A DNA stretch of 53,565 nucleotides from Thermoanaerobaculia bacterium (GCA_036009105.1 DASYMJ010000109.1:1-53565); one strand, 5' to 3'. Positions 1 to 7,300 are shown, counted from the first letter of the stretch. The notes: a model not told the origin generated them from the letters alone. Numbers and translations: made by a program.

Positions 1-600
1 TTTCAGGAGTTGCGCGTCGATCGAGTCGCCGGCGATCGTCAGCGTGCGCTGGTCTTCCTCGGTCGGGTAGCGGCCCTTCATGACGCAGAAGTCGGTCGTG
101 CCGGCGCCGATGTCGATGATCATCGTGTGCAGCAGCGCGTCGAGTCCATACGCGACGGCGAACGGCTCGGTCACGATCAGCAGGCTGTCGACGATGCCTT
201 TCATGGCGTTGCGCAGGTACTGCTTGTTCGTGCGCAGCGCGGCGGCCGGCACGCCGACCACGGCGCGCACCCGCGAGCTGCTCACCCGCCCGTTCGTGCT
301 CACCCCGACCAGCCCCAGGAGATGCTTGAGCAGCTCGCGGACGGCTTCCACGTCCTTCTCCGACCCTTCCTTGAGCAGGCCGCGCTCGAGCGGGCGGTGG
401 AGGTCGAGCATGGTGCGGTTGGCCACCGCCTCGTGGCCGATCAGGACGCTGCGCTTGAGGACTTTGCGCGCCACCATGTCCACCGGCCAGCCGACGAAGC
501 TGTCCACCAGGAAGCGCTCGCCGTTCGAGCCGGAGATGGCGCTGCGCGAGGTGCCGAGGTCGATGCCGACGTGGAGGAGCTCATTGGAGTCATTCAGCAT
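1..600 (-). CDS. MamK-like bacterial actin (MreB/MamK family ATPase), C-terminal part beyond the window edge
   Basis: Manual translation from ATG at 600, open to base 1: MLNDSNELLHVGIDLGTSRSAISGSNGERFLVDSFVGWPVDMVARKVLKRSVLIGHEA...VRAVVGVPAAA...IVTEPFAVAYGLDALLHTMIIDIGAGTTDFCVMKGRYPTEEDQRTLTIAGDSIDAQLLK. Actin phosphate-1 (GIDLGT), connect-1 (EPF) and phosphate-2 (DIGAGTTD) motifs are present. Purine-rich RBS (GAAGGGA) upstream. Not in the ORF track because it has no stop in the window. Confidence 0.88.
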   Translation of the reverse strand, partial: MLNDSNELLHVGIDLGTSRSAISGSNGERFLVDSFVGWPVDMVARKVLKRSVLIGHEAVANRTMLDLHRPLERGLLKEGSEKDVEAVRELLKHLLGLVGVSTNGRVSSSRVRAVVGVPAAALRTNKQYLRNAMKGIVDSLLIVTEPFAVAYGLDALLHTMIIDIGAGTTDFCVMKGRYPTEEDQRTLTIAGDSIDAQLLK

Positions 601-614
601 TCCGAAACTTCCCT

Positions 615-1601
615 TCATCCTTGATTCGCATACGACCGGATGCCGTGAAACAGCGCCTCCGCTATCTGCTGGCGATATTCGGCCCTTCCCAGCATGGAAG
701 CTTCCTTCTCATTGGAAAGGCATCCCACCTCGGCCAGGATGGCCGGCATCTCCGTCGCCACCAGGACGATGAACGGCGCGCGCTTCACCCCCCAGTTCTC
801 CAGCCCCGGATCGGACTTGCGCAGCTTCGTGAAGAGCTGCTGCTGGACGGCGGCGGCGAGCCGCTGCGACTCGCTGCGCCGCGCGTCGGCATAGACGCCG
901 TCGAGCAGCTTGCGCAGGTCGGCCAGCGAGTAGCCGGAGAGGCGGTTCTCATCCGCCGCGAGGCGGGTCAGCGAGGGATCGCTGGTGGGCCCGAGGTAGT
1001 AGGTCTCCACGCCGTGGCTGGCGGTGTGGGCCACGATGGAGTTGACGTGGATGGAGACGAAGATGTCGGAGGAGGACTCGTTGGCCAGCCGGGCCCGGTC
1101 GCGCAAGGGGATCAGCTTGTCGCCGCCGCGCGTGATCACCACCTGGAAGCCGTTCTTCTCCAGCATGGCTTTCAGGCGCGTGGCGACGTCGAGGGTGATG
1201 TCTTTCTCGGCCAGGCGGACGATGGAGGTGCCGGGGTCGGCGCCGCCGTGGCCGGCATCGATCACCACGCGCTTCACGGCCAGCGAAAAGGCGTGCGTGT
1301 CGAGCGGGGCCAGCGAGTCGACCGTCGGCCGCGCATTCGGCCGCGGCCGTGGATCAGCGGGAAGGACGGCGGCGCTGGCGATGGTGTCGTGCGGCTGGGC
1401 GGCAGGGCCGCCGTTGAAGTAAGTGGAGGCGGCGAGGGTGATCGGCACGAGGAGCAGCGGCGCGCGGCGGAGCCACATTTTGAGGATCCGGTTGGCGGGG
1501 CGCAGCGCGCGCGGCGGCCCTCCCCGCATCGTGTCGAGGTTCTCCGCGACCGCCTCTGCGAGCAGCCGCCGCTTCACCCGATCGACCGATTCCCGCCCCA
1601 T
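615..1601 (-). CDS. N-acetylmuramoyl-L-alanine amidase (Amidase_3) with an N-terminal membrane anchor
   Basis: Motifs VVIDAGHGG, AEKDITL, FVSIHVNS and ILAEVG supply the H/E/H zinc ligands and catalytic Glu. Start placed at ATG 1601 (MGRESVDRV), 8 nt after a TAGAAT box. Confidence 0.9.
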   Translation of the reverse strand: MGRESVDRVKRRLLAEAVAENLDTMRGGPPRALRPANRILKMWLRRAPLLLVPITLAASTYFNGGPAAQPHDTIASAAVLPADPRPRPNARPTVDSLAPLDTHAFSLAVKRVVIDAGHGGADPGTSIVRLAEKDITLDVATRLKAMLEKNGFQVVITRGGDKLIPLRDRARLANESSSDIFVSIHVNSIVAHTASHGVETYYLGPTSDPSLTRLAADENRLSGYSLADLRKLLDGVYADARRSESQRLAAAVQQQLFTKLRKSDPGLENWGVKRAPFIVLVATEMPAILAEVGCLSNEKEASMLGRAEYRQQIAEALFHGIRSYANQG

Positions 1602-1612
1602 CCCGCCACATT

Positions 1613-2545
1613 CTAACGTTTTAGCGGCTCGATGACGCTGTAGCGCCTCGTGGCCCCCACCCACGGGTCGACCAGCGAGACCTTGATGGTGTGGGGCAGC
1701 TTCGCCCCGGCGGCCTCCCGGTAGTCGGAATAGTCGGTCTGCTGCGGGATGCGCCCGATCGGCGTATCGGTGAGGACGACGCGGCGGATGAGCAGGCCGT
1801 CGGCGTCGAAGGTGAAGCGCTGATTGCCCGCGGCGAGGGTGGTGGCGTCGATCGCTCTGGCATCGGCCGGGATGTCTCGCGGCCTGATGAAGGCGAAGGC
1901 GCCGGCCAGCTGGTGCATGTTCTCCAACTGCCCGGCATTCATCGGCTTGCCGTTCACCGTGCCTTCCGTCGCGCCGAAGTCCTGCTCCACCTGGCCCACC
2001 TTCACCTGAAAGTGCTCCCCCTGCTGGGCGATCTCCAGCGGCTCCTGCTTGCCGTCCCATCCCTCCCGCGTCCCTTTCAGGGTGAGGTTGCCCAGCTTCG
2101 AGGTGTCGCCGATCGCGGCCGCATAGCGGGCGATGACGTCCTTCGGCGCCGGGCGCTGCGGCTTGTCCGGGGCGGGGGTGGGGAAGGGGGGCGCGGTCTG
2201 CGGCAGCGCCACGAGATTGACCGGCTTGAGCGCGCCGCGGTGGCAGGTGTAGCAGGAGACCACCGGCCGTCCCCCGAACGATTTCTCATTGAGCTCCCTG
2301 GTCAGGGCGATCATTTCCCGCCCCCGCTTCTTCTCCGGCTTCGCATCGCTGGCAAAGTCCCAGCCGTCTTTGTCGCTCACCACGTGGCAGTAGTCGCAAT
2401 GCGTGCCGATGGAGGCGCGCATCATGTTCATGGTGCGCTGGAGCTGGATCGGGGTGAGCCCCTCGAGCAACTGCACGTTTTTCGGCTGCTGGGCAAAGAG
2501 CGGCGCGGCGGCGATGAGCGCGGCGAGATACGCAAGCTTTCGCAT
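1613..2545 (-). CDS. Secreted diheme c-type cytochrome (photosynthetic reaction-centre cytochrome c subunit-like N-terminal domain)
   Basis: Signal peptide, PKNVQLL motif, two CxxCH sites (CDYCH, CYTCH), and an MNMM segment before the first heme as a candidate axial Met. Confidence 0.8.
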   Translation of the reverse strand: MRKLAYLAALIAAAPLFAQQPKNVQLLEGLTPIQLQRTMNMMRASIGTHCDYCHVVSDKDGWDFASDAKPEKKRGREMIALTRELNEKSFGGRPVVSCYTCHRGALKPVNLVALPQTAPPFPTPAPDKPQRPAPKDVIARYAAAIGDTSKLGNLTLKGTREGWDGKQEPLEIAQQGEHFQVKVGQVEQDFGATEGTVNGKPMNAGQLENMHQLAGAFAFIRPRDIPADARAIDATTLAAGNQRFTFDADGLLIRRVVLTDTPIGRIPQQTDYSDYREAAGAKLPHTIKVSLVDPWVGATRRYSVIEPLKR

Positions 2546-2615
2546 GCCGAAGAGGGTAGGCGCACCGCGCGGCGTGGTGCTGTGACGGTGGGGTGACGGG
2601 ATGTGTCGGGGAAAC

Positions 2616-2676
2616 AGCTATCAGTTATCGGTTGTCAGTAGGACCGTCGCTACCGACAACTGACAACCGACAACTG
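2616..2676. repeat. Heptamer-periodic inverted repeat, family A (GTTGTCR)n-GTAG...CTAC-(YGACAAC)n
   Basis: Left arm agctatc agttatc ggttgtc agtag; right arm ctac cgacaac tgacaac cgacaac. Intergenic between divergent genes. Confidence 0.8.
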
Positions 2677-2709
2677 CCCCGGGCGGCTATCCTGCAATAC
2701 TCTCCCTCC

Positions 2710-3747
2710 GTGCCCGACATGAACATCCGCGTCCCCTTCGCCACGCTCCTCAAGATCGCCCTCTTCTGCCTCCTCGCCCTGGCCATCTACGAGCTCTATG
2801 CGGTGCTGGTCATGGTCGTGGTGGCCGTGCTGCTGGCGGTGATGCTCGCGCCGGCGGTCCGCTTCATGACCCGCCATCGCATGCGGCGCGGCCTGGCCAT
2901 CGGCGTCATCGCCATGGTGCTGTTCGGGCTCCTCGGCTTTTTCTTCGCCGTGATCGTGCCGGCCATGGGGCGGCAGGTGAAGGAGCTGAGCGGCGAGTTG
3001 CCGAAGGTCTCCCAGCAGGTCATCCAGCGTTTCCCCATGACCGCGCCGCTGCTGCAGGACGCGCAACGCCGGCCGGACGTCGCGCAGATGAAGGCCTGGC
3101 TCCTGCGCGGCCTGGTGGCGAGCCAATACGCGCTCGAGGCTTTGACCGCGATCATCCTCGTGCTCGTCATCACCCTGTATCTGCTGGTCGAAGGGGCGGA
3201 CATTTATGAATGGCTGGTCAGCTTCGCCAGGCCGGAGCAACGGCCGAGGTGGCGGCGCACGGCGGACGAGGTGGGCCAGGTGATCCTCGCCTACATGCGG
3301 GGGCAGGCCATCACCTGTTTCCTCTGCGGCGGCGTGGCGCTCGTCACGCTCACCGTGCTGCGCGTGCCGGCCGCATTGCCCCTCGCCGTGCTGGCGTTCT
3401 TCTGTGACCTCATCCCGGTGGTCGGCACCATCATCATGAGCGTTCCGGCCGTGCTGCTGGCCATGATGGTCGGCCCGGTCCAGGCCGTCACGGTGGTGAT
3501 CGTCTATGCCGCCTATCACCTCATCGAGAGCTACTGGATCATCCCCCGCATTTACGGCGGCCAGATGCGCCTCTCCACGCTCACCGTGCTGTTGTCCATC
3601 ACCGTCGGCGCGGCGCTGGCCGGCGCGGTCGGCGCCGTGCTCATCCTCCCCTTCGTGGCCGCCTATCCGATCGTGGAGCGCATCTGGCTCCGCCCTCATC
3701 TGCCGAAGGACACGGTGGAGCGGCACGAAGCCATAGAAGCCGATTGA
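2710..3747 (+). CDS. AI-2E (PerM) family transporter
   Basis: Multi-TM hydrophobic protein with YMRGQ, LIPVVGT, ESYWIIPRIYGGQMRLS and ILPF motifs. Start is GTG 2710 or ATG 2719. Confidence 0.88.
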   Translation: MPDMNIRVPFATLLKIALFCLLALAIYELYAVLVMVVVAVLLAVMLAPAVRFMTRHRMRRGLAIGVIAMVLFGLLGFFFAVIVPAMGRQVKELSGELPKVSQQVIQRFPMTAPLLQDAQRRPDVAQMKAWLLRGLVASQYALEALTAIILVLVITLYLLVEGADIYEWLVSFARPEQRPRWRRTADEVGQVILAYMRGQAITCFLCGGVALVTLTVLRVPAALPLAVLAFFCDLIPVVGTIIMSVPAVLLAMMVGPVQAVTVVIVYAAYHLIESYWIIPRIYGGQMRLSTLTVLLSITVGAALAGAVGAVLILPFVAAYPIVERIWLRPHLPKDTVERHEAIEAD

Positions 3748-5541: not shown

Positions 5542-6168
5542 GTGCCGCGACCGAGACGACAGGGAACATCCCAATCATCATCATTGACCCATGGGCAGTC
5601 CAGTTACGTGCTGCAACGGTTGATCAAGGACCGCCGGGTTTCCGCCGGCGACATTCAGCGCTACGTCGGCGAGATGGCCCGCGAGATTGAAAGCCTCGAG
5701 CAGCAACTCGCCTCACTGCGCGCCGCTCATGGCGGCACCGGCACTGGCTCCGGGACCGGCACGGGTACCGGCTCCGGTACGGGCGCGGGCACCGGCACCG
5801 GACGCCGGCGGGGCAGACCGCCCGGACGGCGCAGCGGCGCCGCGGCCGGTACGGGTGCAGGCGGCGGTACGGGCGCCGGCGCGCCGGCGCGCCGCCGCGG
5901 CCGTCCGCCCGCTTCGGCGGGCGCGCAGAGCGGTGGCGAAGGCGAGGGGACGGGCGGTGGCGAACAGGCCGGCGCCGGTCGTCGCGGCCGCCGTGGACGC
6001 CGCGCCGCAATCACCCCCGAGCAGCTCGCCTCGCGCCAGCTGCAGGGCCGCTACCTGGCGCTCATCCGCCAGGTGCCGGAGAACCGCCGCGCACAGTACG
6101 CCAAGATCGCCAAGGAAAAGGGCCGCGAGGCTGCCATCAAGGAGCTTCAGGACGTCGTCAAGAAGTAA
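5542..6168 (+). CDS. Hypothetical basic protein with a coiled coil, Gly/Thr linker and AT-hook motifs (candidate nucleoid-associated protein)
   Basis: AAGGAGG RBS, own terminator, two RRRGRPP motifs plus RRGRRGRR, heptad-like MAREIESLEQQLASLRAA, and TG-repeat linker. Confidence 0.75.
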   Translation: MPRPRRQGTSQSSSLTHGQSSYVLQRLIKDRRVSAGDIQRYVGEMAREIESLEQQLASLRAAHGGTGTGSGTGTGTGSGTGAGTGTGRRRGRPPGRRSGAAAGTGAGGGTGAGAPARRRGRPPASAGAQSGGEGEGTGGGEQAGAGRRGRRGRRAAITPEQLASRQLQGRYLALIRQVPENRRAQYAKIAKEKGREAAIKELQDVVKK

Positions 6169-6188
6169 GAAAAACGCGTTCCCGAGTC

Positions 6189-6218
6189 AAAAGAGGCGCA
6201 CATTCGTGCGCCTCTTTT
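6189..6218. terminator. Bidirectional intrinsic terminator
   Basis: AAAAGAGGCGCAC-ATTC-GTGCGCCTCTTTT. Confidence 0.85.
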
Positions 6219-6474
6219 GTTTTTATGCATCTTGAATGCGGACCGCAAAACGGTCTATGCCGCCGGCACGCCGCGCGCTTGAAAACTTCCATTGCACCGG
6301 ATAGTCATTTCCTCTTCTAGGTGCTGACCACGCGCGAATACATCACGGAGCGCATCGGTCTGGTCTTTCGTAACTGAGGTGAAGGATGCGTTGCCATTGC
6401 AGGCTGCATTGCGCACGTCTTCAGCCGCTATGAGAACGCGCCACGCGCACGAACGATGGCCACGTCACGATCCT

Positions 6475-6665
6475 CTAATGAACCCGCCCGGCCATTGCCC
6501 GATGGCAGGCGCTGGCACGCAAGCTCTCTATGTGCATTTCCATCGCTTCGCGAATGAGCTGCATGGCTTCATCCCGTGTTTCACCGACCGCAACACAGCC
6601 GGAAGATCGGGCACGTATGCGCGAAATGAGGTGTCGCCCCGCTCTACAATGACCAGGTATTCCAT
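6475..6665 (-). pseudogene. hicB: HicB-family antitoxin pseudogene (frameshifted)
   Basis: ATG 6665 gives MEYLVIVERGDTSFRAYVPDLP; after a 1-nt frameshift near 6599 the sequence continues CVAVGETRDEAMQLIREAMEMHIESLRAS, a typical HicB N-terminal pattern. Confidence 0.75.
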
Positions 6666-6669
6666 AGTG

Positions 6670-6850
6670 TTCGCCTAATCTGGCTTACTTGCAGACACTT
6701 CCGAGCGTGCCTGCCGGGACGTCGATGCTCGGCTTACTAGCGACTGTTACGGTTCCCGGCTTAGATGGTGCCTGAACGGACGGTGGCTGCCGCTGGTGCG
6801 CAGAGGAGCCGCGTTCTACTCTCAATAGACATAAGCGCTCCTCCTGACGC
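6670..6850 (-). pseudogene. hicA: HicA-family toxin pseudogene (frameshifts and a premature stop); boundaries approximate
   Basis: Fragments RTSGSHRPFRH and (S)KPGTVTVASKPSIDVPAGTLGSVCK* lie in shifted frames, with TAA at 6685-6687. GSH motif present; sits directly upstream of the hicB remnant. Confidence 0.7.
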
Positions 6851-6934
6851 CAAATCTCCCCTTATTGCACCGTCGTTTCTACAACCGCGAGAGCGGTCCG
6901 GGGGCCGAGGTAATCTCGGAGGCGGAGGTGCATC

Positions 6935-7300
6935 GTGCAGAACGCACAAGTCATTTCGATCCTGGAGTCCCTGGCCGGCGGCCTCGATCCCACCACTGGC
7001 GCCGCACTGCCGGCTGACCTGTTCCAGTCGCCCGACGTCATCCGGGCGCTGTCCGCGGCCGCGCAGGCACTGAAGCGCGACAACGCCCGCCCCCGCCTGG
7101 CCGCGGCGGGCGCGCGGTGGAACGCGGAAGAGGACGCGGCGGTGTGCCGCGAATACGACGAGGGAACTCCCGTGGCGCAGATCGCGCGGCAGCACAATCG
7201 GACGCCGGGCGCCATCAGGAGCCGCCTGGTGCACCTGGGGAGGATGGATCCGGGGACGGTGCGGGTGCGCGACAGAGGCCCGCATACAATGCCGCAATGA
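6935..7300 (+). CDS. Hypothetical protein with a C-terminal Myb/HTH-like motif
   Basis: GGAGG RBS; W-x2-EED...G...AQIARQHNRTPGAIRSRLVHLG pattern. Confidence 0.65.
   Translation: MQNAQVISILESLAGGLDPTTGAALPADLFQSPDVIRALSAAAQALKRDNARPRLAAAGARWNAEEDAAVCREYDEGTPVAQIARQHNRTPGAIRSRLVHLGRMDPGTVRVRDRGPHTMPQ

Follow-up and report, generated by a model that had tools for sequence, protein, structure and literature searches.

How bacteria control the site and the moment at which their wall-cutting enzymes act is only partly understood; the known means of steering such enzymes are FtsEX-EnvC, NlpD, MreB-associated complexes and, recently, bactofilin-LmdC. A stretch of 53,565 nucleotides (nt) from a Thermoanaerobaculia bacterium (GCA_036009105.1, DASYMJ010000109.1:1-53565; the whole stretch is called the window below) raises the question of whether an actin-like filament could steer a wall amidase by direct contact. 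At its beginning lie a gene for a MamK-like actin and, directly upstream of it, a gene for an amidase with a predicted cytoplasmic tail. An earlier, sequence-only reading had taken the two for an apparent transcription unit and for a possible cytoskeleton-guided wall-remodelling module. At the level of comparative genomics this interpretation is supported: the two genes occur together in nearly all loci found, the tail of the amidase is highly conserved, and the filament may well bind this tail and position or cluster the enzyme.

The window is contig C109 of a 4.9-Mb assembly of 373 contigs with a G+C content of 67.6%, and it starts at the first base of the contig. The pair is present as the sequence-only reading had described it, apart from two points: the genes are encoded on the minus strand, and only part of the actin gene is there. 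Its features are the following.

Positions 1..600, minus strand: MamK-like actin, N-terminal 200 amino acids (aa); start ATG at 600-598, truncated by the contig end
Positions 601..614, minus strand: spacer AGGGAAGTTTCGGA, 14 nt between the amidase TGA and the actin ATG
Positions 615..1601, minus strand: amidase gene, complete; ATG at 1601-1599, TGA at 617-615, 328 aa
Positions 618..1280, minus strand: Amidase_3 catalytic domain of the AmiA/B/C type, with regulatory helix insert (LAADENR)
Positions 1281..1415, minus strand: Pro/Ala-rich linker, predicted to be periplasmic, residues 63-107; poorly conserved
Positions 1416..1463, minus strand: hydrophobic segment APLLLVPITLAASTYF, residues 47-62; RR directly before it; read as a signal anchor
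Positions 1464..1601, minus strand: predicted cytoplasmic tail MGRESVDRVKRRLLAEAVAENLDTMRGGPPRALRPANRILKMWLRR, residues 1-46; net charge +7

The loci compared comprise 80 loci of species-representative genomes together with three metagenome contigs, 29 loci from a sample of 401 Acidobacteriota genomes plus three more, contigs of Methylomirabilota and Nitrospirota, and metagenome loci. Of all 202 loci, 188 carry the amidase gene directly upstream of the actin gene on the same strand, two do not, and 12 are cut by a contig end; the adjacency, on whose conservation across the Acidobacteriota the sequence-only reading had made its case depend, thus holds in 188 of the 190 testable loci and extends beyond the phylum. 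All 80 loci of the first set (80 genome loci and three contigs) with enough upstream DNA carry the amidase, the gap being usually 12-100 nt. Thirty genomes of the even sample of 401 carry the actin, namely 25 of the 39 belonging to the class of the window and 5 of the 362 belonging to other classes; the amidase is present in 29 of 29 loci from the other genomes of this sample, even at 49-50% actin identity. Deep-branch relatives are annotated as Methylomirabilota and Nitrospirota, and there the amidase and actin genes overlap by about 4-32 nt. A metagenome scan seeded with the deep branch gave 80 loci, and 63 of the 65 with at least 700 nt upstream have the amidase. The pairing persists in named records of Thermoanaerobaculia, Methylomirabilota and Nitrospirota down to about 50% identity of the actins and 38% of the amidases, while the other neighbours of the pair vary freely among the loci. 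Judged by gene order, the pairing is far beyond chance. Many loci come from related uncultured lineages, as would be expected if the adjacency were gene order inherited without shared function; this explanation is very improbable, in that the pair survives the turnover of its neighbours, is found in Methylomirabilota and Nitrospirota at the low identities just given, and often consists of overlapping genes. Two further candidate members of the unit were rejected: the cytochrome gene lies upstream in only about 25 of the 83 loci of the first set, and in the branch of the window the genes downstream of the actin differ (alcohol dehydrogenase, O-methyltransferase, TMEM260-like), so that no third gene is conserved there.

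In a tree rooted with MreB, 193 of these actins form one clade with a support of 1.0 (184 with the amidase, eight cut and one without it). The sole member without the amidase (L166:3995-5026) is preceded by a gene for a secreted protein of 508 aa, and the approximately 450 nt before its actin gene contain no tail motif. Since it is nested inside the amidase-linked clade, it is probably a case of secondary loss or rearrangement. The second exception, L207, is the outgroup to the 193 amidase-linked actins; it is a magnetosome-type MamK which, without an amidase, stands beside a MamM-like gene (downstream) and a MamE-like gene. Its close relatives L213 and L214, likewise without an amidase, lie among genes for MamB/M-like transporters, trypsin-PDZ-magnetochrome proteins and FeoB, and by this gene content are true magnetosome clusters. 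At one further locus, on a 776-kb contig (L093:5001-7886), the pair is present, the 423-aa amidase product has no recorded Pfam match and the actin is called in two pieces; this is due either to long-read frameshift errors or to a decaying copy.

The sequence-only reading had described a charged N-terminal stretch followed by a hydrophobic segment, and this is what the amidase contains (MGRESVDRVKRRLLAEAVAENLDTMRGGPPRALRPANRILKMWLRR, then APLLLVPITLAASTYF). The family motif of the tail, RVKRRLLAEAVAENLDTM, is carried by a helix predicted at residues 3-25, with A17 and N21 invariant, and has the consensus (R)VKRRLLxEAVxENLxxIxG. A more general form for all branches, [KR]x[KR]xx-[LIV]-L-x-x-[AV]-[VY]-x-[ED]-N-[LV]-x-x-[IML]-x-G, matches 166 of 169 evaluable amidases, the Asn being present in 100%. 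In mean column identity, tail residues 8-33 (0.79) equal the catalytic domain (0.77), and the hydrophobic segment (0.57) and the linker (0.39) lie lower. An AlphaFold2 model of the amidase (mean predicted local distance difference test score, pLDDT, 83.5) has a helix at residues 3-25 (pLDDT 74-87), a break at RGGPPRALR, one continuous helix at 35-62, a disordered linker (block means of 44-67 over residues 61-110, residues 68-81 below 50) and a confident catalytic domain. The conserved motif positions 0, 1, 4, 5, 8, 9 and 12 fall on the same side of the predicted helix. With a profile of residues 1-65 (tail and membrane segment), only 123 proteins were matched among 1.84 billion representatives; 26 of the 29 matches of at least 200 aa that were scanned are Amidase_3 proteins, and the rest are marginal. 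In a six-frame translation of the whole genome the specific tail pattern occurs exactly once.

That this N-terminal stretch is translated and conserved follows from the comparison of start regions: in almost every relative the tblastn alignment of the amidase reaches back to residue 3-7, and the start codon of the relatives lies mostly seven residues before RVKR. The alternative that an internal Met (MWLRR...) is the true start, which would leave a plain Sec signal peptide, was rejected because this Met is replaced by I, L, A and others in relatives and the 40 residues upstream of it are conserved in about 170 loci.

The only Pfam match is Amidase_3 (PF01520; 160.5 bits against a cut-off of 27, 5e-47, model positions 1-173 of 174), and the Pfam scan gave no AMIN or LysM domain in the amidase, in agreement with the sequence-only reading. 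Among solved structures, those closest to the amidase are Bartonella AmiB (3NE8) and E. coli AmiA (8C2O), with which the protein aligns contiguously through residues 208-260, including the regulatory-helix insert of about 40 residues; CwlD, CwlV and AmiC2 types align in two separate stretches. The segment LAADENR of this helix is aligned with LAESENK and LSERENR of AmiB and AmiA. The zinc ligands and catalytic Glu (H118, E132, H185 and E291) align with the GHGG, EK, SIH and (L/I)E(V/I)G Glu of the same two enzymes and are invariant in 70 amidase orthologues, as are E218 and N219 of the regulatory helix. This helix keeps such enzymes autoinhibited, and by analogy the same is predicted for the amidase of the window. 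In Foldseek comparisons the model superposes on AmiA, AmiB and AmiC, with target-normalized TM-scores of 0.75-0.89 for 4RN7, 8C2O and 3NE8 and 0.50 for AmiC 4BIN, which is a longer chain. The NCBIfam equivalog cut-offs are missed (AmiC 98 against 700, AmiA 92 against 400, AmiB 86 against 532).

The fragment of the actin in the window scores 216 bits on positions 1-186 of 335 of the NCBIfam MamK model (NF040964), against 42 bits for MreB. The phosphate-1 (VGIDLGTSRS), catalytic-Glu (TEPFAVAYG) and phosphate-2 (IIDIGAGTTD) motifs are present and invariant. Relatives with about 90% identity are 341-345 aa long. Full-length orthologues, 98% and about 90% identical, reach 372, 382 and 374 bits on the MamK model, below its cut-off of 400, and 63-70 bits on MreB models (TIGR00904 and PRK13927; cut-offs 293-366), while the Nitrospirota/Methylomirabilota branch of the amidase-linked clade reaches 431-435 bits on the MamK model. 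The BeeR model (NF053558) gives 116-212 bits (full-length orthologues 200-212) against a cut-off of 530, and the best match in the PDB is MamK, with 267 bits over the full length. No magnetosome genes (mamA, B, M, E, I, L, O, P, Q and others) were found beside any amidase-linked locus examined; the controls L207, L213 and L214 do show genes for MamM/B-like CDF proteins, trypsin-PDZ-magnetochrome proteins and FeoB. On these scores the actin is a near relative of MamK which falls below the NCBIfam cut-off and is without magnetosome context. In a deep Acidobacteriota branch one actin has an acidic, Gln/Glu-rich N-terminal extension of 27 aa (MKGNDESQEYQDSVQDNEQPQEEEQAQ; L097:1399-1480), which recalls the disordered N-terminal domain of BeeR; the actin of the window has no N-terminal extension.

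The genome holds a separate, true MreB (contig C41, 505 bits on PF06723) and two Amidase_3 genes besides the paired one, and the pair is therefore an extra system and not a replacement for MreB and the usual amidase. One of the two, in the region C202:2433-3068, encodes an AmiC-like amidase with a normal signal peptide, an N-terminal region of about 270 aa, Amidase_3 and the same regulatory insert; this secreted enzyme is probably the division amidase of the organism. Residues 156-345 of the paired actin are encoded at the start of another contig (C292:3-572) with 96% identity to the full-length orthologue P0003. The two contigs overlap by 45 aa within the actin, and their DNA differs at synonymous sites in these 45 codons, which suggests that the gene was split by an assembly break between strain variants. 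On C292 the actin is followed by an open reading frame (ORF) of no assigned family (about 576-1874).

As the sequence-only reading had stated, the stop codon of the amidase (TGA, 617-615) lies 14 nt from the start of the actin (ATG, 600-598; MLNDSNELL...), and a TAGAAT box (1615-1610) precedes the amidase ATG by 8 nt. The actin start is also that of the database gene calls (P0001); an alternative in-frame ATG upstream, at 618-616, would overlap the amidase stop as ATGA. The spacer is purine-rich with a Shine-Dalgarno-like stretch, and no terminator-like site was found on the minus strand within its 14 nt. Co-transcription of amidase and actin would fit this short gap, the overlaps in relatives and the lack of a terminator. 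Two features border the amidase gene upstream.

Positions 1610..1615, minus strand: -10-like box TAGAAT, the TAG of which (1615-1613) doubles as the stop codon of the cytochrome gene
Positions 1613..2545, minus strand: c-type cytochrome gene, CytoC_RC-like, with two CxxCH

In 62 of 69 orthologous loci a TAN[AT][AT]T box stands in the 70 nt before the amidase start, as compared with 1.5% of random 70-nt windows of the same loci; it reads TAGAAT in 33 loci and TACAAT in 10. There are two classes of spacing to the ATG: 7-8 nt (15 loci, including the window), as is typical for leaderless transcripts, and 15-48 nt, where a G-rich stretch resembling GGGTGAG stands between box and ATG. A scan of positions 1-2800 for sigma-70 promoters with two hexamers (-35/-10) gave none, and it is therefore on the conserved -10-like box that the case for a promoter of its own is built. 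This comparison lends support to the own promoter suggested by the sequence-only reading, and the pair probably has one.

In the reading proposed here, which is on balance slightly favoured, an autoinhibited amidase is positioned or clustered by a filament bound to its tail helix. The MamK-like actin would presumably polymerize beneath the membrane and bind the tail helix on its hydrophobic face, with the invariant Asn at the centre. Recruited, aligned or clustered along the filament by this binding, the amidase would cut the wall at places, and perhaps at times, determined from the cytoplasm; in turn it would tether the filament to the membrane. Since the enzyme keeps its regulatory helix, a further activation step is likely, either by a LytM factor encoded elsewhere or by clustering itself.

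Contact between tail and actin is the part of this proposal on which another explanation differs. In it the two proteins act in the same pathway and the tail does not touch the actin, binding instead the surface of the membrane, a regulator or a protein of the divisome or elongasome, while the actin organizes another component. Conserved adjacency proves functional linkage and not contact, a basic amphipathic helix near the membrane could be lipid-binding or regulatory, and the genome has the usual MreB and another amidase. Three observations make this explanation somewhat unlikely: the tail motif is found only on amidases adjoining this actin family, the actin has no evident membrane-binding element of its own as far as can be read from its sequence, and a peptide in the same register is carried by unrelated proteins beside magnetosome-type mamK genes. 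This peptide ends the ORFs directly upstream of mamK in magnetosome-type clusters, with the pattern ...(A/V)(V/I)Lxx(V/I)F(R/K/Q)QN(I/V/L)x(L/I)Q(K/R)P. The encoded proteins are a PAS protein and one of 144 aa, to which a more distant cluster adds an unrelated protein of 215 aa.

L207:1642-2037 and 2137-3669: peptide-bearing ORFs
L213:5181-5615 and 5715-6962: peptide-bearing ORFs
L214:6274-6921: peptide-bearing ORF

The peptide (VLxxVFxQNI, ...AVLxxVFxQNIxLQKP) has the same Phi-Phi-xx-Phi-Phi-xx-N-Phi register as LLxEAVAENL of the amidase. It is no more than suggestive of a shared docking peptide for actins of the MamK family; if the resemblance holds, the same peptide occurs on different clients of different MamK-family actins, as direct binding predicts.

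In the Nitrospirota-type branch the actin is followed by a third gene at L128-L132 and, among the 21 closest metagenome loci, at 12. Its product consists of a receiver domain, a charged linker, a transmembrane (TM) helix, a Pro-rich linker and a C-terminal SPOR domain.

L128:6053-7507: receiver-TM-SPOR gene
L129:6034-7179: receiver-TM-SPOR gene
L131:6022-6993: receiver-TM-SPOR gene
L134-L137, L140, L143, L145-L147, L152 and L153: receiver-TM-SPOR genes at further loci

SPOR domains bind glycan strands that have been stripped of peptides by amidases. The receiver-SPOR protein would be a second bitopic protein of the module and could read glycan denuded by the amidase; a periplasmic reader of amidase products as third gene ties the module to wall cleavage. 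In the genome of the window a search for SPOR matches gave none, and only matches to receiver domains.

Several points weigh against the proposed mechanism, the first of which concerns the membrane segment. In the window this segment has 16 residues, a best 19-residue hydropathy of only 1.25 (median of relatives 1.55), two prolines and an end in small residues (LAAS/TY), and the RR before it is found in 55 of 70 relatives in the context L-R-R-A-P-L. In a twin-arginine translocation (Tat) signal the motif S/T-R-R-x-F-L-K leads into a weakly hydrophobic h-region, and an AxA cleavage site comes after it; E. coli AmiA and AmiC are Tat substrates. For the amidase of the window a cleaved Sec or Tat signal is accordingly a fair rival. 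In its full form this explanation makes the first 62 residues an extended, cleaved Tat/Sec export signal and the mature amidase a free periplasmic enzyme, the conserved n-region serving in targeting or in the timing of export, possibly with the actin-fold ATPase acting on the precursor; extended signal peptide regions occur in autotransporters. It is unlikely. RR is replaced in 15 of the 70 relatives (in some by RT, RW, HR, RV or RG), an n-region of 46 aa as conserved as the catalytic domain would be unusual for a signal peptide, and the long disordered linker suits a tethered enzyme. Moreover, in other branches, among them the Nitrospirota-type one, the hydrophobic segment has 20-24 residues and lacks both RR and an AxA-like end (IFLLFSIIILTVLGHLTFMNF and LTWWLLSGIVGMTVGALFFFLVL are examples), and for this reason an uncleaved anchor with the N-terminus inside is favoured over a signal peptide. 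The positive charge of the tail (median +9 among relatives) likewise favours the N-in orientation. For the family as a whole the segment is quite probably an uncleaved signal anchor. A cleaved signal peptide was one of the objections which the sequence-only reading had raised against itself; the segments of the other branches speak against it, while the weaker segment of the window leaves room for cleavage there.

The remaining points on that side are of other kinds. No LytM-type activator is encoded in the amidase-actin unit, and the regulatory helix implies one. The resemblance of the magnetosome-cluster peptide comes from one clade, and the loose pattern also matches membrane helices (four in 7.5 thousand residues). 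Read-through from the cytochrome gene is possible, its end lying 11 nt before the amidase ATG.

It might also be supposed that the amidase is mainly a wall-bound anchor for a filament which positions an organelle, the nucleoid or a polar structure, wall cleavage being secondary. Organelle positioning is the task of MamK proper, the pair would connect the filament with both membrane and wall, and the accessory partners differ by branch, the receiver-SPOR protein being one example. This role is quite unlikely: the invariance of zinc ligands, catalytic Glu and regulatory helix in the 70 sequences argues for selection on regulated catalysis, and no cargo genes are conserved nearby.

A broader reading is possible and is put forward tentatively. 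Actins of the MamK family would be general client-positioning filaments that read one docking peptide, a short helix of the pattern Phi-Phi-x-x-Phi-Phi-x-[E/Q]-N-Phi; the protein whose gene immediately precedes that of the actin would carry it at a free end in the cytoplasm. For the large non-magnetotactic branch this client would be the amidase, and magnetosome MamK would be a specialized offshoot. If this were true, an ATP-driven cytoplasmic filament would directly write the pattern of wall cleavage, which the receiver-TM-SPOR protein would read in some lineages, and magnetosome MamK would use the same docking code for organelle adaptors. Even the narrower proposal, of a filament binding the amidase tail, would mean that an actin-family filament is wired straight to an amidase via a helix of 25 residues. 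It would give a function to a large non-magnetosome part of the MamK family and a hint at the origin of the magnetosome cytoskeleton. The pair occurs in uncultured soil and sediment lineages of Thermoanaerobaculia, other Acidobacteriota, Nitrospirota and Methylomirabilota. Literature searches on MamK with amidase, Acidobacteria, SPOR and non-magnetotactic homologues found no publication on it.

Among known systems, MreB-RodZ resembles the proposed module in its layout: beneath the membrane lies an actin homologue, and a bitopic protein, by way of its cytoplasmic domain, links it to wall enzymes in the periplasm. It differs in that RodZ, itself no enzyme, uses a helix-turn-helix domain for binding; moreover, the genome has its own MreB, and the paired actin gives only 42-70 bits on MreB models. 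In cell division the bitopic FtsN binds the actin homologue FtsA by a short N-terminal tail and reads amidase products with its periplasmic SPOR domain, and AmiA and AmiB, which have the same regulatory helix as the amidase described here, are switched on from the cytoplasm through a membrane complex (FtsEX-EnvC). Unlike in both of these, the amidase itself carries the tail, there is no ABC transporter or LytM activator in the unit, and AMIN is lacking; the SPOR partner is found in another branch only. The sequence-only reading had called the module distinct from MreB/RodZ and FtsEX-EnvC-AmiC, which is a fair description of a pair whose genome also encodes a true MreB and a separate secreted AmiC-like amidase.

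MamK (PDB 5LJW, 5LJV, 5JYG; NF040964) is the closest solved relative of the actin and its best family model, and the ATP-binding motifs are common to both; the differences are the score below the cut-off of 400, the lack of magnetosome genes nearby and the amidase partner. The study of MamK-related actins from bacteria that are not magnetotactic has only just begun (PMC11929497). One of them is BeeR, a three-stranded tubular actin of Verrucomicrobiota with a disordered N-terminal domain and of unknown function (PDB 8R2N, PMC11929497). The actin of the window shares with BeeR the relationship to MamK and the non-magnetotactic host; it is far more distant from it (123 bits to 8R2N), lacks the N-terminal extension and has an amidase partner, of which none is reported for BeeR in PMC11929497.

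By how it works, the closest analogue is BacA-LmdC of Hyphomonas neptunium and Rhodospirillum rubrum, in which the tail of the hydrolase binds the bactofilin directly (dissociation constant about 15 uM) and the polymer recruits the enzyme (PMC10945521). In both systems the genes for polymer and hydrolase are adjacent, and the hydrolase is bitopic, here by prediction, with a short conserved cytoplasmic N-terminus, one TM helix and a periplasmic catalytic domain. Unlike BacA-LmdC, the present pair combines an actin-fold ATPase, instead of a nucleotide-independent bactofilin, with an Amidase_3 amidase, instead of an M23 endopeptidase, and the tail, which would bind the polymer, is predicted to be an amphipathic helix and not a β-hairpin. 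The recruitment of a bitopic wall hydrolase by a cytoskeletal polymer is thus a known theme, of which the comparative evidence supports a new version, made of an actin and an amidase.

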